From contig CAMDJP010000001.1 in NCBI GenBank assembly GCA_945900775.1, positions 11,168 to 75,167 on the forward strand: a DNA stretch of 64,000 nt, in the 5' to 3' direction. Below are positions 48,341 to 57,935 of this stretch, one piece after another; position 1 is the stretch's first letter, and every line of letters begins with the position of its first letter. A model generated the notes under the pieces. It was not told where the DNA came from and ran no database searches. It worked only from the letters and a program-made list of their open reading frames with translations. The position numbers were made by a program, and so were the translations under genes. The stretch is from Akkermansia muciniphila (GTDB lineage Bacteria; Verrucomicrobiota; Verrucomicrobiia; Limisphaerales; SIAT01).

Positions 48341-48417
48341 CGGGACGTAGCGTAGCTTGGTAGCGCGCTTCCTTGGGGTGGAAGAGGTCGTGAGTTCAAA
48401 TCTCACCGTCCCGACCA
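48341..48417 (+). tRNA. tRNA-Pro(GGG)
   Basis: CGGGACG/CGTCCCG acceptor stem, CTTCC-TTGGGGT-GGAAG anticodon arm, GTTCAAAT T-loop, encoded CCA. Confidence 0.97.
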
Positions 48418-48463: not shown

Positions 48464-49618
48464 ATGATAACTGTCCTTTTCATTTCTTTATTGAGCAGTG
48501 CCGTCTCGGCCTTTTTTATTGTTCGTTTTTCCCACCTTCATCTACACGTCACGTCTGACACTGCATTTGGCGAAGGTCCTCAAAAAATTCATCACGAAAT
48601 CACGCCTCGCATCGGTGGAGTGGCTATTGCGATTGGCCTAATCGCCGGTCTGTTAGCGGCAGTTCAAACTGATGTATTGTCCGGCAAGAAATTCCAAATG
48701 TGGATACTTTGTGTCACTCCCGTATTTTTCGCAGGTCTAGCGGAAGACATCACAAAAAAGGTCGGCGCGCGCTGGAGACTTGGCGCCGCCTTTGGAGCGG
48801 CATTACTCGCTTTGATTCTGCTTGATGGAGAAGTGCCTCCACTCGGCACCGCAGCATTCATTGGTCAACCTTTTTATCCCGCGCTCTGCGTTGCGTTCAC
48901 TCTCTTCGCTGTTGGCGGCGTTACGCACGCCTTCAATATTATGGATGGTCTCCACGGTTTATTGGGTGGCATGTCGATATTGACCCTCGCTGCTCTTGCG
49001 TGGATGTCGGACAGGATCGGAGATAGCGAGTTGTTTATTGCTTGCTTGAGTCTGCTCGGTGGCGTGTTTGGCTTTCTTATTTTCAATTTCCCATTTGGAA
49101 AACTCTTTGCCGGCGATGCTGGCGCCTATCTCATAGGGTTTGTGATTGCCGAGATTTCTGTCCTGCTGAGCGCAAGACATCCAGAGGTCTCCCCGTGGTT
49201 TATCCTATTGCTGCTGGCGTATCCGGTAACAGAAGTCTTGTTTTCTATTTATCGGCGGTCTTTTTTGAAGCAGCAACCCGCAGGCAAACCCGACGGCTTG
49301 CATCTCCATTCGCTTTTATACAAACGAATTGGGATCTGGATTTGGGACGATGACACCAACGTCTTAGCCAAAGCGCTTTCCAATTCCTTCGCGACCGTCT
49401 TAGTGTGGGTTTTGATGTTATTGCCCTTGGGGATGGCGGTGCTTTTCTGCGATCGTCCTCCACTTCTGATCTGCGGCTGCATAGGTTTTATGCTTTGCTA
49501 CGTTTCTCTGTACTGGGGATTGGTTCGATTCAAGACCCCACGGTGGCTGCTTTGGATTAAAGCCGTTCGCTACCATAAAAACGCGAAACGCCTCTTAGAT
49601 CCCGCATGCCGCGAATGA
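48464..49618 (+). CDS. MraY/WecA family (Glycos_transf_4) polyprenyl-phosphate sugar-1-phosphate transferase
   Basis: PRIGG, GLAED, NIMDGLHG, FNFP..KLFAGDAG and PDxLHLH motifs. Confidence 0.9.
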   Translation: MITVLFISLLSSAVSAFFIVRFSHLHLHVTSDTAFGEGPQKIHHEITPRIGGVAIAIGLIAGLLAAVQTDVLSGKKFQMWILCVTPVFFAGLAEDITKKVGARWRLGAAFGAALLALILLDGEVPPLGTAAFIGQPFYPALCVAFTLFAVGGVTHAFNIMDGLHGLLGGMSILTLAALAWMSDRIGDSELFIACLSLLGGVFGFLIFNFPFGKLFAGDAGAYLIGFVIAEISVLLSARHPEVSPWFILLLLAYPVTEVLFSIYRRSFLKQQPAGKPDGLHLHSLLYKRIGIWIWDDDTNVLAKALSNSFATVLVWVLMLLPLGMAVLFCDRPPLLICGCIGFMLCYVSLYWGLVRFKTPRWLLWIKAVRYHKNAKRLLDPACRE

Positions 49619-49701: not shown

Positions 49702-51093
49702 ATGAAGAATGCTTTCATTTGCCTCTTGGGTGCTACAGTGGGCGTTTCTCACATTGCCGGTGCGCCGGTCGATTTCGTTAAGGAAATACAACCACTTCTC
49801 GAATTCAACTGTGTGGCCTGCCACCGCGAAGGGTACGCGAAGGGGGGCTTACGACTCGACCGCCGCGATGAGGCCTTCAAGGGTGGCGACTTGGGTGTTG
49901 GCATCGTTGCTGGAAAACCGGAGAAAAGCCCCGTTTATACTTGGACCGTGGTTCCAGCGGATGACGAGCGCTTGATGCCACCGAAGGCGAAGAACGGCCC
50001 ATTGTCCAAGGACAAGACCGACCTCATTCGTGACTGGATAGCTCAAGGCGCTCAGTGGCCGAAGGATCTTGTGCTTATAGGGAAGAAAATCGATGAGATT
50101 GCTGGCGATGAGAAGACGCTCGCGATCGAACTGCACAAGCGCATCGTGAGTGCAATAAGCGAGACATCCGCTTCGCAGATGAAGCCCTATACCTCGAAGA
50201 TTCCGGGTGCCGACATCGAGTTTTCGATGCAGCCGATTCCCGCTGGCGACTTTGTCATGGGCAGCGCGACGGCTGAAGCGGGTCGCAAGACGGATGAAAG
50301 TCCCCAGCACAAGGTGAAGATTGCCCCTTTCTGGATGGGTAAATTCGAGGTGACATGGGATGAGTTTGAACTCTTCATGTATCCCGAGGAAGAGAAGCGC
50401 ACGATGGTCCGCTTCGGCCCGACAAAGGAGGACAAGGTTCTTGACGCTGTCAGTCGACCGACCAAGCCGTACGTGGAGATGAGCTTCGGTATGGGTAAAG
50501 TCGGTTTTCCTGCGATTTCGATGACGCACTATGCGGCTAATAAGTATTGTCAGTGGCTCAGCTCGAAGACGGGGCATTTCTATCGCCTGCCAACCGAAGC
50601 GGAGTGGGAATACGCCTGTCGTGCTGGCACGCAGACGGCCTATTCGTGGGGCGACGATCCGAAGCTGGCGAAGGAATATGCGTGGTTCGAGAACAACAGC
50701 GAGTTCAAGTACCAGAAGATTGGCAAGAAGAAGCCAAATGCATGGGGTCTCCACGACATGCACGGCAACGTCGCCGAGTGGTGTATCGACCAGTACGCCG
50801 CAGATTACGCCCGATTCAAAGCATCAGTAACCGAAAATCCGTGGACGAAATCCACTACACCCTATCCACACGTGGCTCGTGGCGGCTCATGGGATGACGC
50901 ACCGGATAAACTCCGCAGCGCGGCGCGGCGCGCCTCGGACAAGTCATGGAAACAGCAGGACCCTCAACTCCCGAAGAGCATCTGGTATCTTACCGACGCC
51001 CAGTTCCTCGGCTTCCGCGTCGTACGTCCGCTCAAAGTGCCCTCGGCCGAAGAGTTGCAGGCCTTCTGGAACAACGGTGTGGAACGCGAGTAA
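49702..51093 (+). CDS. Exported planctomycete-type cytochrome c + FGE-sulfatase (SUMF1/PvdO-like) fold protein
   Basis: DFVKEIQPLL..CVACH...MPP..WI.QGA; then F.MGS, RLPTEAEWEYACR, GLHDMHGNVAEW, RGGSW and GFRVV. Confidence 0.88.
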   Translation: MKNAFICLLGATVGVSHIAGAPVDFVKEIQPLLEFNCVACHREGYAKGGLRLDRRDEAFKGGDLGVGIVAGKPEKSPVYTWTVVPADDERLMPPKAKNGPLSKDKTDLIRDWIAQGAQWPKDLVLIGKKIDEIAGDEKTLAIELHKRIVSAISETSASQMKPYTSKIPGADIEFSMQPIPAGDFVMGSATAEAGRKTDESPQHKVKIAPFWMGKFEVTWDEFELFMYPEEEKRTMVRFGPTKEDKVLDAVSRPTKPYVEMSFGMGKVGFPAISMTHYAANKYCQWLSSKTGHFYRLPTEAEWEYACRAGTQTAYSWGDDPKLAKEYAWFENNSEFKYQKIGKKKPNAWGLHDMHGNVAEWCIDQYAADYARFKASVTENPWTKSTTPYPHVARGGSWDDAPDKLRSAARRASDKSWKQQDPQLPKSIWYLTDAQFLGFRVVRPLKVPSAEELQAFWNNGVERE

Positions 51094-51317
51094 CTCGAAG
51101 CCTGAGCGGTTCATCGATTCGCGACCGCAGGGAGTAAAAACACGAGAATCCTTGCGCGACCCTTCCAGGGCCTGATGGGACTGAAAGCACCAGTTTTGCG
51201 CCGGGTTACCCAACAGTTTTTTCGGTGATGGACAATTCACACGGGAGACGATAGAGAATCACCCGCTCCAGCGACACAGCACGCGCCGGCGCACCGAAGA
51301 ACGAACCTAAACGATTT

Positions 51318-52688
51318 ATGAACCAAAACACACCGCTGAACCCGAGCTTTTCGCGCCGGGATTTCCTCTCCAACACCACCAAGGCGACAGCTGCCGCCTC
51401 GCTGCTCGGCACGCTGCCGATTGAGCGTTTCGCTCTTGGCGCCTCGCCGAGCGACACGGTGAAGGTCGCTCTCATCGGCTGCGGCGGGCGCGGTTCCGGC
51501 GCGGCGAACCAAGCCCTGAGCACTGACGGCTCCGTTAAGCTCGTGGCCGCGGCGGACGTGCATCCGGACCGGATGAATGGCGCCATCGGCAATCTTACGA
51601 AGGGTCACAAGGACAAGGTGGACATTAAGAAGGAGAACATGTTTCTCGGGTTCGACGGTTATAAGAAAGCCATCTCGCTCGCCGACGTGGTGATTCTTGC
51701 CACGCCGCCGGGCTTTCGCCCGATGCAGTTCGAGGAGGCGGTGCGCCAGGGCAAACACGTGTTCATGGAGAAGCCGGTCTGCGTGGACGCGCCCGGCTTC
51801 CGCAAAGTGATGGCTGCCGCCCAAGAGGCGAAGAAGAAGAACCTCAAGGTCGGCGTCGGTCTTCAGCGGCATCATCAGGCTGGGTATCTGGAGACGATGA
51901 AGCGCCTGCATGACGGCGCCATTGGTGACATCGTGGCGATGCGCGCCTACTGGAATGGCAACACCCCGTGGGTGCGTCGCCGCGACGAACTCGAAAAACA
52001 ATACGGCCGCAAGCTCACCGAGATGGAGTACCAACTCCGCAATTGGTACTACTTCGTCTGGCTCTGCGGCGACCATATCGCCGAGCAGCACATCCATAAT
52101 CTCGATGTCATTAACTGGGTGAAAAAAGGCCCGCCCGTCCGCGCTCGCGGCAACGGTGGTTGCGAAACCCGCAAAGGCAAGGACTACGGCGAAATCTTCG
52201 ACCACCATGTCGTCGAGTTCACATACGAAGACGGCTCCGTCTGCTTCAGCCAGTGCCGCCATCAGCAGGGTTGCTGGAACGATGTCTCCGAGTCTGTCAT
52301 CGGTACGAAGGGCAAGAGCGACATCAGCCGCCATACCATCACCGGCGACAACGCATGGCGCTTCCAAGCCCAAGACCAAGCCAAGCGCAAGGATGCTTAC
52401 CAGCAGGAGCACGACAACCTCTTCGCCGCCATCCGCAACAACACTCCGTTCAACGAAGCCGAGTATGGCGCGACCAGCTCGATGACCTCTGTACTCGGTC
52501 GCATGGCGACCTACTCGGGCAAGGAGGTCACTTGGGATCAGGCCATCAAATCTGAAGTGGACACGATGGTTCCGAACATCGACAAGGTGTCGTTCGAAGA
52601 GGCGATGCAGCTAATGCCGAAGAGCCTGCCGGATCCGGTCACCGGACTCTACAAGCTGTCCGTGCCCGGCCAGACCACCGTCATCTAA
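51318..52688 (+). CDS. Tat-exported Gfo/Idh/MocA oxidoreductase
   Basis: SRRDFL; IGCGGRGSGA, ATPPGFRP, MEKP and EQHIHNLD motifs. Confidence 0.92.
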   Translation: MNQNTPLNPSFSRRDFLSNTTKATAAASLLGTLPIERFALGASPSDTVKVALIGCGGRGSGAANQALSTDGSVKLVAAADVHPDRMNGAIGNLTKGHKDKVDIKKENMFLGFDGYKKAISLADVVILATPPGFRPMQFEEAVRQGKHVFMEKPVCVDAPGFRKVMAAAQEAKKKNLKVGVGLQRHHQAGYLETMKRLHDGAIGDIVAMRAYWNGNTPWVRRRDELEKQYGRKLTEMEYQLRNWYYFVWLCGDHIAEQHIHNLDVINWVKKGPPVRARGNGGCETRKGKDYGEIFDHHVVEFTYEDGSVCFSQCRHQQGCWNDVSESVIGTKGKSDISRHTITGDNAWRFQAQDQAKRKDAYQQEHDNLFAAIRNNTPFNEAEYGATSSMTSVLGRMATYSGKEVTWDQAIKSEVDTMVPNIDKVSFEEAMQLMPKSLPDPVTGLYKLSVPGQTTVI

Positions 52689-52692
52689 TTAA

Positions 52693-53742
52693 GTGTTTCC
52701 GTTTTCTCATAACACCCGCATCTGGCGACAGGTGCGGGTGTTTTGTTTACTACTACTCACTGGTTGCGCAACGACACGCGAGGAAATAGGCCGCGAAACG
52801 CTCTCTCGCCTCGAGTTCGCTCAGCCCGCGATGGGCACGATGTTCCGTATCGTTCTCTACGCATCAGATCAAAAACGTGGCGAGGCGGCTGCGAAGGCCG
52901 CCTTTGCCCGTGTCATCGAACTCGAGCGCGCGATGACCGACTACAATCCCGAAAGTGAACTGCTTCGCCTCTGCCGCCAACCGCACGGCCAGCCGATTCA
53001 TGTAAGCCACGATCTCTTCGCCGCGTTGCGATACGCTCGTGAGTTAGCCGAATTGACTAGCGGTGCGGTTGACCCGACCGTCGGCCCCTATGTCCAGCTC
53101 TGGCGTCGCGGCCGTCGTCAACGTGAATTACCAGCGCCCGAAAAGATTGCCGAGGCAGCTCCTGCTGTCGGCTGGAAAAAGTTTCAACTCGATCCCACAA
53201 AGCAGACCGTTACGTTGTTCGCACCGAACATGCGCCTCGACCTCGGCGGCGTTGGAAAAGGGTACGCGGCTGATGCGGCGCTGACGCTATTGCGAAATCG
53301 CGGCATCACGGCGGCTCTCGTCGCCGCCAGTGGCGATCTTGCCATTGGTGATCCGCCGCCGGGCAAGACTGGCTGGGATATTGGATTGATGTCCTTCACC
53401 AGTGATAAACCGGGCCAGCAGGTGACGCTTCGAAATTGTGCCGTCTCCACTTCGGGCGACACCGAACAGTTTCTGTTGTTCGACGGCGTGCGTTACTCCC
53501 ACATCGTGGACCCGCGTACCGGTCGCGCGCTCACAAACCGCGTTAGCGCCAACGTTGTTGCGCCAACGGCCACGCAGAGTGACCTCCTAGCCACAGCCGT
53601 TTGCGTGCTCGGGGCGGAGAAAAGCTTGGAGATTTTCAGAAAGCTCGACGGAGTTCATTTCCGCGCTGTCATGCTGCGTGGTGAAAAGCCGTCGGAAATC
53701 GTTTCGCCCGAATTCCCGCCAGCAAAAAAGACAGAGAAGTGA
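52693..53742 (+). CDS. apbE: FAD:protein FMN transferase (ApbE), lipoprotein
   Basis: LTGC lipobox; AMGT, DPTVGP, DLGGVGKGYAAD, STSG, HIVDPRTG and D..ATA motifs; exact start uncertain. Confidence 0.92.
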   Translation: MFPFSHNTRIWRQVRVFCLLLLTGCATTREEIGRETLSRLEFAQPAMGTMFRIVLYASDQKRGEAAAKAAFARVIELERAMTDYNPESELLRLCRQPHGQPIHVSHDLFAALRYARELAELTSGAVDPTVGPYVQLWRRGRRQRELPAPEKIAEAAPAVGWKKFQLDPTKQTVTLFAPNMRLDLGGVGKGYAADAALTLLRNRGITAALVAASGDLAIGDPPPGKTGWDIGLMSFTSDKPGQQVTLRNCAVSTSGDTEQFLLFDGVRYSHIVDPRTGRALTNRVSANVVAPTATQSDLLATAVCVLGAEKSLEIFRKLDGVHFRAVMLRGEKPSEIVSPEFPPAKKTEK

Positions 53743-53765: not shown

Positions 53766-54785
53766 TCAGGTCACCAACCGTTCGCGCAGTTGTGCTACGC
53801 TCGCGGTGCCCGTGGTGCCAAGCTGGTGGATAACCACCGAGGATGCGACCATCGCAATCTCTAGCGCCTCGCCCAGTGCGGCCCCGGCGGCGAACGCACA
53901 GGTGAGGTTCGCCGTCACCGCATCGCCCGCGCCGACAATGTCGATTTCGCCCCGCACCGGCAGTGAAGCGACATGCTCCACCGCTCCCGCCGCGTTGGCT
54001 CCGATGATTCCCTCCTCCGAAAGAGTGACGAAAACAGGTCTGCTGGTTTTTCGGGCGAGCTCTGCCGCGGCCTGTTTTACTTCCGAGAGGCTGGAGGATT
54101 CTCTGCTTCCAGTCATAGCCGTTAGTTCTGCGCGGTTCATTTTGAGAGAGACCGCTGGCCAACCGCACAAGCCGCGTCGGCTATCGCCGAGAATCAGAAG
54201 TTTCGGACGACTACTCGCGATTTCGCCAGCCGCATCGAGCAGGCGATTAGTCACCACGCCGGTTTCCCGGACATCGACTTGGTCGAGCAGGATGATGGCG
54301 TCGACCGTCGCCGCGATTTCCCGCAGCGAAGCGATGAGTTGCTCTTGAACTACGGTGGGCGTCGGCGATGAATTCTTGCTGTCGAGCCGGCTCAACTCTT
54401 CGGGCGGGCGCGTGGGGTGGATGACGAGCGGTTTGCAGTAGGTGAAGGTGCGGCGCTCGGCGGTCTGGAGGAAGTATTCCATCCGCACGCCCGGCATTTG
54501 GCGCAGAGCGCGCTGCAGTTCGTAACCCTCGCCGTCCTCACCGCAGAAGCCGACCGGCCGAAGCTCGCCCACGCCGAGCGCGACGAGGTTGTTGAGGATG
54601 GTTCCTGCGCCGCCCGGTTGACTGCGGACGTTCACCACATTGTAGACAGGCAAGCCGGTCTCGATCGATGTCTCGGCACGTGCTGGGTCGATTTCGAGGT
54701 AACGATCGAGGCAGAAGTCGCCCACCACCGCGATGCGCAGCGCCGCGTATCTGCTGGTGATATCCTGTAGGCGTTCCCGGTTCAC
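53766..54785 (-). CDS. PfkB family kinase similar to the HldE/RfaE kinase domain
   Basis: VVGDFCLDRY, PGGAG..NNLxALG and DIVGAGD motifs; no nucleotidyltransferase domain. Confidence 0.85.
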   Translation of the reverse strand: MNRERLQDITSRYAALRIAVVGDFCLDRYLEIDPARAETSIETGLPVYNVVNVRSQPGGAGTILNNLVALGVGELRPVGFCGEDGEGYELQRALRQMPGVRMEYFLQTAERRTFTYCKPLVIHPTRPPEELSRLDSKNSSPTPTVVQEQLIASLREIAATVDAIILLDQVDVRETGVVTNRLLDAAGEIASSRPKLLILGDSRRGLCGWPAVSLKMNRAELTAMTGSRESSSLSEVKQAAAELARKTSRPVFVTLSEEGIIGANAAGAVEHVASLPVRGEIDIVGAGDAVTANLTCAFAAGAALGEALEIAMVASSVVIHQLGTTGTASVAQLRERLVT

Positions 54786-55897
54786 GCGCTATGAGTGAGT
54801 TCGTGCAATAGGTGCTGGACGAAGACGAGGTTGTCACATTCTAGATAATGCATCTCGCCGCCCATTCGCGAGAAGCTCTTGCAAAAGCGGAGGTAGTAGG
54901 CCGGATTGTCTTTGGGCGGCTCGCCCTGCGTCCAGTCCCAGTTCCCGCCATCCTGCAGGTCCACCACGTACATGCTGTGGCCCTTCACAATCGGCCGGTT
55001 GGCCTGCAGGCGAAGGTTGTTCACGCAGCTGAGGCTCTTCTCGAAGACCTGAGGACCCATGATGGCCGAGCCGACGGAGAGAACCGCGCCGCCGTCGAGG
55101 CCTTCCACCGCGGTGCTGAAGAGACGGAAGTCGGTCGTAGCCGCGCGGCCGAGCACAGCGCCGTTGAACATCGGGTGGTTGGAGATGATGTCATAGCCGA
55201 TGCCGGGATGGACAGTGATTGGGATGTTCCGGCGGAACGCCTGCGCCAAAACAGAGCTTGCCTTCCACGGATGCTTCACCTCGATACGGCCCGACGGTAG
55301 GCGATGACGAAGGATTACCTGCAACAGCTCAGCCCGCGCCGGCGCGAGTGGATGAGATGGCTCGGCGCGAAGCTGATTTTCCAATTCGTCGCTGCTAGGA
55401 AGGATTACGCCATCGTCCGCGATGAAGCGGCCAAGACTTCGCCCGAAACCATCCTCACGCAACGCACCGACGAGTAGCGCGAGGTGAATATTGCGCCCCG
55501 TCTCGTCCCACGCGCCGAACGTGCCAGTGGCGACATTTTTCGCGACACTCTCGGTGGAGCGGCCGAGAAACGCCCATTCCCAGTCGTGGATGATGCCGGC
55601 GCCGTTGGTGGCGAGGTGCGTGATCCAGTCACCGTCCATCAATCGGTCGAGAATGAGATGGCCGCCGTTCTTGAGCAGGTGAGCGCCGTAGATGAGTAAC
55701 ACGCTCGCACCGCGGACGCGCGCCGCACGAATGTTTTCTGTAGCGTGGCGGATGAGCTTGGCGGTCATTTCGCCGCAGGGCGGCAGGGGACGGTCGAGTG
55801 GCACGAGCGTCTCCTCGATGGTCGCCATGCTCGCGCGCTCGGCGAGCGGGAAGACCTTGAGCTTCGTGAGGTCGAGCGGTTCGGGAAACGGTTGCAT
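54782..55897 (-). CDS. Hypothetical protein, probable deoxyhypusine-synthase-like fold
   Basis: GAHLLK.G, LATNGAGIIHD, SVLAQA...IPITVHPGIG.D and GSA..P..FEK patterns resemble DHS-like proteins; overlaps the kinase start. Confidence 0.6.
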   Translation of the reverse strand: MQPFPEPLDLTKLKVFPLAERASMATIEETLVPLDRPLPPCGEMTAKLIRHATENIRAARVRGASVLLIYGAHLLKNGGHLILDRLMDGDWITHLATNGAGIIHDWEWAFLGRSTESVAKNVATGTFGAWDETGRNIHLALLVGALREDGFGRSLGRFIADDGVILPSSDELENQLRAEPSHPLAPARAELLQVILRHRLPSGRIEVKHPWKASSVLAQAFRRNIPITVHPGIGYDIISNHPMFNGAVLGRAATTDFRLFSTAVEGLDGGAVLSVGSAIMGPQVFEKSLSCVNNLRLQANRPIVKGHSMYVVDLQDGGNWDWTQGEPPKDNPAYYLRFCKSFSRMGGEMHYLECDNLVFVQHLLHELTHSA

Positions 55898-55912
55898 ACG
55901 TTGGCGATGAGC

Positions 55913-56746
55913 TTAAGCGTCCAGCAACCGCGCAAGCAAGGCGTCTGGCTCGCGGTAATCGGGGATGAGAGCGTCCGCGCCAGCAGCAATTAAAGCACGG
56001 CGCTTGTGCGACTCCATCACACCAGAGCCGTTTTGCAACTCGTCGCTAGCGACGCCGATAGCGAGACCGCCGATTTTTTTCGTCGCTTCGATTTCGACGG
56101 CGCCGTCGCCGAATGACAGTAGGCGTGAGCTATTGATCTGCTCCTCTCGCAAGATTTGTTCAAGGTGTGCCAGCTTAGAGAAAGTCCGGCGAGGCTTACT
56201 GCCGATGACACGTCCACCGAAGAAGCGGCCGACGCCAATTAATTCACTTTCCACGCGGACGCGATCCTCGACCGTGCCGCTCAGGATGAAGAGTTTCATG
56301 CCGCGCGCAGCGAGCTTTTCTAAAATAACGACCGCGCCATGCACGACGAAGTCTTCGGGGCGCATCTTCGCTTCGTGGACTTTCGCAGAACGCTCGACAA
56401 TGTTCCGGTCGAGCGAATCCTGGAACTGTTGTCGCAGCGCCTCAGGATCAGGCGGTGTACCGCCGCGCTCGCGGACGCGCTCAGCGAACCGCTCCATCTG
56501 GTGAATAGTCAGTTTACCGTTCAGCGCATAGATGTCGGCGAGCATCATCTCGTGCAGGGCCGATTCCGTGTCGCCTACGCGGCGCGGCAGGAGCGGAAGG
56601 AAAATCTCCAGCATGATTTCCGGCCAGCCGTGGCGCAACCACGAGAGTGTGCCGTCGAAGTCGAAGACGACGTGTGTGATGCCCGGCCGAGGCGCGAAAC
56701 TTGCCGACGCCTCGAACGCGCTCGTCTTCGTCGTCGCAGAAACCAT
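55913..56746 (-). CDS. HAD superfamily hydrolase
   Basis: FDFDGTLS, ILSGT and FGDGxxE motifs. Confidence 0.88.
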   Translation of the reverse strand: MVSATTKTSAFEASASFAPRPGITHVVFDFDGTLSWLRHGWPEIMLEIFLPLLPRRVGDTESALHEMMLADIYALNGKLTIHQMERFAERVRERGGTPPDPEALRQQFQDSLDRNIVERSAKVHEAKMRPEDFVVHGAVVILEKLAARGMKLFILSGTVEDRVRVESELIGVGRFFGGRVIGSKPRRTFSKLAHLEQILREEQINSSRLLSFGDGAVEIEATKKIGGLAIGVASDELQNGSGVMESHKRRALIAAGADALIPDYREPDALLARLLDA

Positions 56747-56840
56747 GCGACGAGAGTAAACGACGGCGCCGCGAAAAGGTCAATTGCCGCTCAGGGAATG
56801 ATTGCAGTCGTCGTTGGGCTTTGATAGGCAAGCGGAACAA

Positions 56841-57935
56841 ATGAACGTACATACCGAGAACACGACGCGTCGCGAGTTTCTCAAGTCCGCAACTCTCGGC
56901 ACTGCTGCTTTAGCTCTCGCCCAAACCGGAGTTGCCGCTGCGCCGAAGCGCCGACTCAAACTCGGCTACGACAACTTCGCCGTGCGCGCGATGGGTTGGA
57001 AGGCGCCGCAACTCATCGACTACGCGGCCAAACTCAAGACCGATTCGCTCTTCATCACCGACTTTGGCCCGTTCGAAAAGACCGATGACGCTTATCTAAA
57101 GGACCTTCGCAAGCAGGCGGCCGACAAAGGAATCCAGCTCTGGCTAGGCTCGTGGAGCATCTGCCCCACGTCGAAGTCGTTCAAGAAGGACTGGGGGACG
57201 GCGGAGGAGCATCTCGCCCTCGGCATCCGCATGGCGAAGGCCCTCGGCTCACCTGCCTTCCGCGTCGTGCTCGGCAACGGCAGCGACCGCCTCACCGAGG
57301 GCGGCATCGACGCCCGTATCGCCGACACCGTAAAAGTGATTAAGAGCCAACGCTCCAAGGCGCGCGACGCCGACGTGAAGATTGCTATGGAGAACCACGC
57401 GGGTGACCTCCATTCGCTCGAGCTAGTCCGCCTCATCGAGGAGGCTGGCAAAGAGTTTGTCGGTGCGAACATGGATTCCGGCAACGCCGTCTGGACGCTT
57501 GAGGATCCTCTTCAGACCCTCGAGAACCTCGGGCCCTACACTCTAACTACGAGCCTACGCGACTCCGCCGCGTGGGAGAGCGAGAACGGCATCACCGCGC
57601 AGTGGACCGCGATGGGCGAGGGGCAGGTCGATTGGAAGCGGTACTTCGCCCGCTTCGCCGAGCTCTGCCCAAACGTCGCCGTGCACATCGAGACCATCTC
57701 CGGCTTCAACCGCGAGCTGGCGGTAAAGAAGGAAGAATTCTGGAAGGCGTGGCCCGGTGGCAAGCCGAAGGGCTACGACCAATTCCTCGCCTTCGCAAAG
57801 CTGGGCAAACCTCGCGCTGCCTGGAAGGCGCCCGAGGGCAAAGACCGCAAACTCGCCGACCAAGAGTATCAGAAGGGCGACGTAGAGCGGAGCATCGCCT
57901 TCTGCAAGACGCTCGGGCTCGGTCCACAGGTGTAG
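56841..57935 (+). CDS. Tat-exported sugar phosphate isomerase/epimerase (TIM barrel)
   Basis: TRREFL; ENHAGD, DSGN and HIE motifs. Confidence 0.88.
   Translation: MNVHTENTTRREFLKSATLGTAALALAQTGVAAAPKRRLKLGYDNFAVRAMGWKAPQLIDYAAKLKTDSLFITDFGPFEKTDDAYLKDLRKQAADKGIQLWLGSWSICPTSKSFKKDWGTAEEHLALGIRMAKALGSPAFRVVLGNGSDRLTEGGIDARIADTVKVIKSQRSKARDADVKIAMENHAGDLHSLELVRLIEEAGKEFVGANMDSGNAVWTLEDPLQTLENLGPYTLTTSLRDSAAWESENGITAQWTAMGEGQVDWKRYFARFAELCPNVAVHIETISGFNRELAVKKEEFWKAWPGGKPKGYDQFLAFAKLGKPRAAWKAPEGKDRKLADQEYQKGDVERSIAFCKTLGLGPQV

Follow-up and report, generated by a model that had tools for sequence, protein, structure and literature searches.

A conserved gene trio of FGE-fold protein, Gfo dehydrogenase and ApbE, and a candidate non-canonical flavinylation site

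We describe three neighboring genes in a stretch of 64,000 nucleotides from the Verrucomicrobiota assembly GCA_945900775.1 (contig CAMDJP010000001.1, positions 11,168 to 75,167 of the forward strand), hereafter the window, whose own numbering is used throughout. Between positions 49702 and 53742, three co-oriented genes (+), all with predicted export signals, encode a haem c protein with the fold of formylglycine-generating enzymes (FGE), a dehydrogenase of the Gfo/Idh/MocA family (Gfo1), and a lipoprotein of the ApbE family (ApbE1). Comparison of genomes indicates that these genes are a real, conserved functional unit across several phyla. We tentatively propose, giving it somewhat less than an even chance, that ApbE1 flavinylates residue Thr254 of the FGE-fold protein. 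That electrons pass from the cofactor bound to Gfo1 to the attached flavin mononucleotide (FMN), and from there to the fused haem c, is a further step, and a less probable one. The arguments for flavinylation are all comparative: gene neighborhood, phyletic pattern, an orphan ApbE, a conserved loop, a separate ApbE clade, gene fusions, protein topology and the tolerance of the published motif to substitution.

The trio recurs both within the order and across phyla, as expected from the original prediction that the three genes are a conserved unit. Within the order, we collected 36 loci with an ApbE1 orthologue, several of them on contigs that end inside the cluster. The trio or parts of it are present in 17 of these loci (FGE-fold gene adjoining in 10, Gfo1 in 16), and neither gene lies near the orthologue in the remaining 19. 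A second, cross-phylum set was obtained by scanning with an alignment of the FGE domain, at one genome per species, and comprises 80 loci, namely the 67 closest (L069-L135) and the 13 most distant (L136-L148). Judging from record titles, the 67 belong to the Verrucomicrobiota, Planctomycetota, Bacteroidota, Acidobacteriota and Armatimonadota. In 38 of the 67, no more than 700 nt separate the FGE gene from a Gfo1 homologue, which is present in the flanks of 42; an ApbE gene at up to 8 kb accompanies 30, with gene order and orientation varying between loci. No Gfo1 and no ApbE accompany the 13 distant loci (Fisher p 0.0014, with related loci that are not independent). Orthologues of the three-gene operon are present in the cultured Pedobacter sp. 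Hv1 and Sphingobacterium sp. N143, and partial sets in Eudoraea adriatica DSM 19308, Neolewinella maritima and Tautonia sociabilis. Some loci hold further genes: in three from Flavobacteriaceae/Maribacter (L095, L096, L116), a YceI-like protein of ~180 aa is encoded between the FGE-fold gene and apbE, and in L095 this gene is followed by a short-chain dehydrogenase/reductase and by a Tat-signal (twin-arginine translocation) small subunit and a 781-aa large subunit that look, by appearance, like a molybdopterin oxidoreductase.

The phyletic pattern agrees with this neighborhood. All 67 genomes with the FGE gene encode an ApbE, and each of the 37 that lack one nearby has one elsewhere. Of the 41 genomes that represent the order, 37 carry the FGE subfamily, as do 28 of the 30 high-quality ones. 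The two high-quality genomes without it (G012, G037) are also the only ones lacking an ApbE1-like match better than 1e-36, and the FGE subfamily and the ApbE1-like gene are thus present or absent together in the 30 high-quality genomes, with none discordant.

The FGE-fold protein (49702..51093, +, 463 aa) begins with MKNAFICLLGATVGVSHIAGA, by inspection a Sec-type signal in which a twin arginine is absent. Its PSCyt1 cytochrome c domain (PF07635, residues 37-95, 49810..49986; E 4.9e-14, 53.1 bits against a cut-off of 22) opens with the haem motif CVACH (residues 37-41, 49810-49824), and residues 177-419 form an FGE-sulfatase domain of the FGE/PvdO fold (PF03781, E 4.5e-44; 50230..50958). A CxxCH motif lies within the FGE reading frame in just 17 of the 67 cross-phylum loci; because of this low share, we regard the haem c as a probable lineage-specific accessory, outside the core of the module.

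We modelled residues 164-463 with AlphaFold2 (AF2) from an alignment of 105 homologues, obtaining a predicted local distance difference test (pLDDT) of 91.3 and a predicted template modelling score (pTM) of 0.92; an earlier model from a 10-row alignment was unusable (pLDDT 50.3). PvdO (5hha) is the best solved match both by sequence and by Foldseek search of the model (TM 0.65/0.73), and Foldseek also retrieved the FGE 1z70 (E 7.7e-18). In a library of representative proteins, 213,005 members of the superfamily matched a profile of the FGE domain at E <= 0.001; the best 150 matches were mostly multi-repeat giants, and 25 single-domain, full-length ones were of use.

In spite of its fold, this protein is no formylglycine-generating enzyme, as had been suspected from the sequence: the copper-binding, catalytic Cys pair of true FGEs is missing, and RGGSWDD (50878..50898) stands in its place according to alignments with solved structures and with the FGE on contig C35 of the same genome. 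That canonical FGE reads RGGSYLCTDLYCGAFR at this position (in a wider comparison, RGGSYLCTDLYC against RGGSWDDAPDK), and the pair is absent from all 10 syntenic homologues of the window protein. Identification as PvdO was also rejected, with a score far under the equivalog cut-off: among NCBIfam equivalogs PvdO came best with 121.2 bits against a cut-off of 500 (NF051459), and GldK was likewise far below its own. The protein shares the fold and PF03781 with FGE/SUMF1 and PvdO, and with PvdO also a periplasmic location and the lack of the catalytic Cys pair. It differs from them by a D-A-V-S-R-P-T-K-P-Y loop, a C-terminal DPQLPKSIW motif and the fused haem c. The C35 gene (14105-15208 of that contig) encodes the Cys pair together with an N-terminal membrane anchor, and since it is present, the genome possesses a standard route of sulfatase maturation, separate from the Cys-less protein of the window.

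The candidate flavinylation site is the DAVSRPT loop (50443..50463, exact in the translation), with Thr254 at 50461-50463. We counted its residues, from Asp at position 0, in 66 subfamily sequences from the loci and in a second, planctomycete-rich set of 105. The hydroxyl residue at +6 never varies (66/66, with 45 Thr and 21 Ser; 105/105). Asp is kept in 64 and 104 sequences of the two sets and Pro at +5 in 62 and 104, the other four of the smaller set having Ala. In the smaller set, Ser or Thr occupies +3 in 60 sequences, Arg +4 in 38 and Tyr +9 in 64; in the larger, Ala is at +1 in 94, I/L/V at +2 in 100, and Arg at +4 in 34. From these alignments the conserved core is D-A-[ILV]-x-x-P-[TS]-x-P-Y. 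The pattern D-x-x-[ST]-R-P-[ST] of the original prediction therefore stands in its Asp, its Pro and its final hydroxyl residue, while +3 and +4 are variable. The loop had rightly been singled out, being a hallmark of the subfamily. It is absent from distant FGE homologues, PvdO and PorK in our alignments. In the AF2 model, D-A-V-S lies at a helix end and R-P-T in the following coil (pLDDT of the block, 85).

The published flavinylation motif is D-x-x-[ST]-G-A-[ST], in which G to A and A to V changes keep about 50% of flavinylation and D to A has minor effects (PMC12052999). The Asp, Ser at +3 and Thr at +6 of the window loop fit this motif. Canonical or near-canonical forms are found at the same aligned place in four relatives, with DAVSGAT in L085, DAISGAT in P0144, DAISSAS in L094 and DAIASAT in L101. 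Among the 66 locus sequences, position +4 is Gly or Ser in three of the four with Ala at +5 (Ala-type) against seven of the 62 with Pro there (Pro-type; p 0.0096, probably reflecting one or two lineages). ApbE lies within 8 kb of none of the four Ala-type and of 30 of the 62 Pro-type loci (p 0.12), a hint that Ala-type loci use a housekeeping ApbE.

The third protein, ApbE1 (52693..53742, +, 349 aa), matches PF02424 over profile positions 1-260 of 266 (E 7.5e-71), and its residues 37-322 align with the FAD:protein FMN transferase 4xdt (FAD, flavin adenine dinucleotide; E 2.6e-39). It has a lipobox (LLTGC) and the segments LDLGGVGKGY, TSGD and YSHIVDPRTG, presumably the catalytic GxGKG, TSG and H-[IV]-[IV]-DP-x-TG elements. 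It scores 144.7 bits with NCBIfam PRK10461, under the equivalog cut-off of 498. We assign ApbE1 to the FAD:protein FMN transferase family, its activity being predicted from the sequence.

For a usual substrate of such an enzyme we searched both the locus and the genome. The [ST]G[AS][ST] pattern occurs in none of the three proteins, the original prediction having seen no [ST]GA[ST] site in the two neighbors, and a Pfam scan found no FMN_bind, NqrB/RnfD, DUF2271 or DUF3570 domain in them. Across the genome (2.57 Mb, 91% complete), FMN_bind, NqrB/RnfD and DUF2271 were not found, and DUF3570 gave no match in a search run without a positive control. A genome-wide scan for D[AGS].[ST]G[AS][ST] matched in four places, namely in DXS, in glutamate synthase and in two unlikely frames, and no plausible substrate is among them. 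Two ApbE genes are present, ApbE1 and ApbE2. Among 41 genomes of the order, ApbE occurs in all 41, FMN_bind in 14 and NqrB/RnfD in three, one of which is solid. In Meheust 2021 (PMC8238504), genomes with such orphan apbE genes are taken to imply unidentified substrates, and the genome of the window is an orphan-apbE genome in that sense.

The ApbE enzymes of these loci also stand apart in phylogeny. We used a quick FastTree phylogeny of 118 ApbE domains, midpoint-rooted, for a single split (support 100). Every one of the 36 ApbE1 orthologues falls on one side, clade I, together with 26 of the 28 ApbEs that adjoin an FGE gene in other phyla and with all eight domains from ApbE-FGE fusion proteins; the other side holds the FMN_bind/Nqr-adjacent ApbEs, ApbE2 with its orthologues, and two FGE-adjacent exceptions. 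The fusions were recognized from P0101, a single representative protein that joins ApbE and FGE: PF02424 and PF03781 occur together in nine 90%-identity clusters among the 120 best matches to P0101, with ApbE first in seven and FGE first in two. Eight of their domains entered the tree, where they occupy three places; the partial protein P0156 was left out. Frames of 570-784 aa upstream of ApbE orthologues were rejected as further fusions, being GC-rich open frames without recognizable domains in the stretches read.

Clade I ApbE domains have other fusion partners too. Among 35 long ApbE1-like proteins, the partner is a 3-keto-disaccharide hydrolase in 11, a sulfatase in five, a fucosidase in three and an FGE domain in three, and GDSL lipases, HEAT repeats and glycoside hydrolases were also found; Gfo or FMN_bind partners occur in none of the 35. 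One of these fusions (among proteins P0270-P0301, in which the fucosidase is an alpha-L-fucosidase) comes from Tuwongella immobilis. By their domain content, the fusions place clade I ApbE in periplasmic glycan-degradation loci, and the 3-keto-disaccharide hydrolases tie it to reactions of the kind that should follow oxidation by a sugar 3-dehydrogenase.

Gfo1 (51318..52688, +, 456 aa) is the Gfo/Idh/MocA oxidoreductase of the trio. Both its N-terminal (PF01408, 43.7 bits) and C-terminal (PF22725, 28.7 bits) domains score above the cut-offs, and it contains GCGGRG, EKP and GDHIxEQHxHNxD. The GxGxxG, EKP and D-x3-H elements, which we take to be the family motifs of Gfo/Idh/MocA proteins, are invariant among 13 orthologues. 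Its leader, SRRDFLSNTTKATAAASLLG, carries SRRDFL (51351-51368) by inspection, and the Pfam TAT_signal model gave no match at E <= 0.01. Of the 15 orthologues whose N-terminus is intact, 14 keep RRxF[LIV]; a sixteenth row (L010) is cut off by a contig end. The nearest solved relatives are inositol dehydrogenases, matched over the N-terminal domain only (E 1e-12). Membership in the family of the NCBIfam BT_2158 'glycoside 3-dehydrogenase' model was rejected, the score lying far below the cut-off (46.7 bits against 750; E 1.7e-12).

The Bacteroides BT2156-BT2159 pathway handles 3-keto-glycosides and offers two likenesses. One is a Tat-type Gfo beside a xylose-isomerase-like TIM barrel, seen in the window and in 12 of the 67 cross-phylum loci, where a PF01261 barrel directly after Gfo1 is the next commonest neighbor. 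The other is the fusion of 3-keto-disaccharide hydrolase domains to ApbE1-like domains. To our knowledge, neither an ApbE nor an FGE-fold protein is needed in that pathway. Because of these links to TIM barrels and to 3-keto-disaccharide hydrolases, the data suggest that Gfo1 acts on a glycoside or inositol. In the window, the barrel (56802..57935, +; PF01261 and TAT_signal) lies four genes downstream of apbE1 and is a possible accessory enzyme.

In the mechanism that we propose, ApbE1 would take FMN from FAD and join it through a phosphoester bond to Thr254 of the Sec-exported FGE-fold protein, DAVSRPT acting as a proline-containing variant of D-x-x-[ST]-G-A-[ST]. ApbE1 is a predicted periplasmic lipoprotein and the FGE-fold protein is Sec-exported, and the modification would therefore take place outside the cytoplasm. 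A cytoplasmic ApbE would fit a Tat-exported, folded protein, and a lipoprotein ApbE fits a Sec-exported FGE-fold protein. The FMN would then re-oxidize the nicotinamide cofactor carried out by Gfo1, or reduce it, as the direction could be the reverse. In this lineage, the fused haem c could pass electrons on to the respiratory chain; versions without haem occur in Bacteroidota. We infer this path from sugar through NAD(P)H (reduced nicotinamide adenine dinucleotide or its phosphate) and FMN to haem; the original prediction had the module as a whole pass electrons via haem c, of which the conserved unit stands and the general role of haem does not, haem being fused in so few of the loci. A predicted complex of Gfo1 with the FGE domain scored 0.01 against a mark of 0.32 in a run without controls, and counts neither for nor against binding.

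A wider version of this proposal, of somewhat lower probability, would make the FGE/PvdO fold a new class of ApbE substrate with its own ApbE clade and the motif D-A-[ILV]-x-x-P-[TS]. The FGE-fold protein would then serve, with a Tat-Gfo, in a widespread relay from NAD(P) to FMN (and to haem) in Verrucomicrobiota, Planctomycetota, Bacteroidota and Acidobacteriota, and ApbE2 would load a second Tat-Gfo before export.

Several observations weigh against flavinylation of the FGE-fold protein. The Gly-Ala pair of the motif is replaced in the window by Arg-Pro, and the accessible texts of PMC8238504 and PMC12052999 contain no flavinylation site with a proline. The D-x6-[ST] skeleton alone is low in information, and in the set of 105, position +3 is Ser or Thr in just 45 sequences and Ala in 57. 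The loop was predicted to be specific to homologues syntenic with apbE and is instead subfamily-wide, being equally present in 36 of 66 motif-bearing loci without an ApbE within 8 kb. The model shows it as ordered rather than as a floppy tag, and it may be purely structural. The covalent flavin itself is a prediction from comparison. Synteny within the order may in part be inherited gene order. The ApbE split comes from FastTree with midpoint rooting only, and the FGE-adjacent ApbEs of Pedobacter (L089) and Sphingobacterium (L097) fall in the other clade. Nor can the fusions be taken as specific proof of an FGE substrate, the same ApbE domains being fused to unrelated hydrolases.

The remaining objection comes from the second ApbE of the genome. 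On contig C34 (9102-11504, L003), a Tat-Gfo (Gfo2) is followed directly by ApbE2, which has no signal peptide, and an FGE gene is not nearby. This Gfo2-ApbE2 pair is kept in 20 of 29 orthologous loci, and six of eight long ApbE2-like proteins combine ApbE, a twin-arginine signal and a Gfo domain in a single open reading frame. These arrangements suggest that an ApbE can be tied to a Tat-Gfo without any FGE protein. A Gfo may thus itself be an ApbE client, because ApbE2 pairs with a Tat-Gfo that lacks an FGE partner.

Applied to the window, this alternative would make the Tat-Gfo itself the client of ApbE1, or ApbE1 its maturation factor, with the FGE-fold protein binding substrate through its C-type-lectin-like fold or serving as a dock. 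The gap of 4 nt between gfo1 and apbE1 is what it would lead us to expect, as are three ApbE1 loci (L043, L066, L067) whose flanks contain Gfo1 and lack an FGE gene, and all Gfo proteins studied here have a motif-like strand, D-[AV]-[IV]-x-x-A-T. We nevertheless consider it unlikely. That strand is a buried one of the Rossmann domain, shared by the entire family, and outside it the orthologue alignments of Gfo1 and Gfo2 contain no conserved flavinylation-like site. Two Gfo2 segments were tried as flavin sites and rejected: the last position of the loop D-K-N-T-P-G-T is Ala in three of 18 orthologues, and IDPETS has Val or other residues in several. The ApbE1-like proteins, in contrast to those of ApbE2 type, are never fused to Gfo, nine loci keep FGE and ApbE with Gfo1 absent from the flanks, and a periplasmic lipoprotein would be an odd partner for a protein that folds before Tat export.

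An alternative of similarly low probability dispenses with covalent flavin. ApbE1 could be a periplasmic FAD pyrophosphatase or flavin-trafficking protein, as Treponema pallidum Ftp can be, or have another role in glycan loci, and the loop could be structural or bind something else. The best solved relative of ApbE1 is the T. pallidum protein 4xdt/4ifu. The fusions of ApbE1-like domains to hydrolases that need no flavin, and a loop without the Gly-Ala pair that is modelled as ordered, point the same way. However, clade I ApbE and the FGE subfamily co-occur almost perfectly, and this pattern, the canonical SGAT variants at the same loop position and the invariant +6 hydroxyl are hard to explain without a direct tie of enzyme and substrate.

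Two further explanations are very improbable. In the first, the FGE-fold flavo-haem protein would be a new periplasmic sulfatase-maturing enzyme (Ser/Cys to formylglycine) that ApbE matures, for which the retained fold, the five ApbE-sulfatase fusions and the occurrence of the subfamily, by record titles, in phyla rich in sulfatases can be adduced; the dominant neighbor is nonetheless a Gfo and no sulfatase family recurs, and the genome already has its canonical FGE. In the second, ApbE1 would serve unrelated, unrecognized substrates and the nearness of the genes would be inherited order, as the 19 ApbE1 loci without either gene might suggest, some of them adjoining the same genes for a PfkB kinase, an unassigned protein and a HAD hydrolase as the window; adjacency that recurs in five phyla with varying gene order and orientation, the ApbE-FGE fusions and the absence of discordant high-quality genomes speak against it.

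If Thr254 is flavinylated, the module would join the known ApbE systems and the periplasmic flavo-cytochrome dehydrogenases. As in the ApbE flavinylation systems NqrB/NqrC, RnfD/RnfG, NosR, FMN_bind, DUF2271 and DUF3570, a lipoprotein ApbE lies beside a secreted redox protein, and the loop shares with known substrates the Asp at 0, Ala at +1, I/L/V at +2 and Ser/Thr at +6; NqrC/RnfG-type sites carry A/G and I/V at +1 and +2, as the loop does. It differs from them in that the FGE/PvdO, C-type-lectin-like fold lies outside the described substrate families, in that x-P replaces G-A (62/66 and 104/105 sequences), and in the separate clade formed by FGE-linked ApbEs. The reasoning from orphan apbE, neighbor and fusion is that by which DUF2271 was found, according to PMC8238504, and it is followed here. 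Among the papers listed by our literature searches, none connects ApbE or flavinylation to proteins of FGE fold or to Gfo enzymes. The words 'Gfo', 'FGE' and 'sulfatase' are absent from the main texts of PMC8238504 and PMC11334425, whose supplementary tables may list PF03781 or PF01408. We found no list that names the FGE-fold protein as an ApbE target.

The closest parallel for the dehydrogenase is another exported enzyme. In Zymomonas, glucose-fructose oxidoreductase is a Tat-exported protein of Gfo fold whose cofactor is recycled by a second sugar substrate. Gfo1 has the same fold and a putative twin-arginine signal, and presumably carries a bound nicotinamide cofactor with it on export; it differs in that a separate flavo(haem) protein is proposed as its acceptor, and the sequence relation is distant.

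Around the trio, we noted the following features. The apbE1 gene starts 4 nt past the end of gfo1, and a terminator-like hairpin with a U-run (52711..52742, +) lies 20 nt past the gfo1 stop, within the first apbE1 codons. Its 14-bp stem (folding free energy -31.2 kcal/mol, z -5.6) is followed by UUUUGUUU. Two loci of the same genus share the stem, and L036 has a different GC hairpin with a U-run at the same junction. As a possible attenuator of apbE1, the hairpin of the window may hold the level of ApbE below those of FGE and Gfo1. A scan for sigma-70-like promoters between 49400 and 54000 found none against 1.4 expected and is uninformative for this phylum. Upstream, a tRNA gene (48341-48414, +; 64.9 bits), the sole Rfam match, precedes a gene for a family 4 glycosyltransferase (48464-49618). 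Downstream, the opposite strand (53766-56746, -) encodes the PfkB kinase, a 371-aa protein without a Pfam family (54782-55897) and the HAD hydrolase. The same three genes are co-oriented upstream of the ApbE1 orthologue in L054, and each of the three families is met again at between 3 and 5 of the 19 ApbE1-orthologue loci from which FGE and Gfo1 are missing. In a search of sequencing runs for the locus, six DNA runs labelled lake water metagenome contained 0.71-0.93 of the sampled words, and no RNA run turned up.

ApbE flavinylation is the known means by which bacteria connect redox reactions beyond the cytoplasm. A conserved partner whose loop comes near the motif would close the gap left by orphan apbE genes and widen the sequence rule for flavinylation sites, giving the flavin-tagging field a second pair of motif and enzyme. 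Since cultured strains carry orthologous operons of all three genes, bench work on the idea could begin immediately. If it is true, it would explain the orphan ApbE genes of these phyla, and also how exported dehydrogenases with a bound nicotinamide cofactor are recycled in a compartment without free NAD(P).

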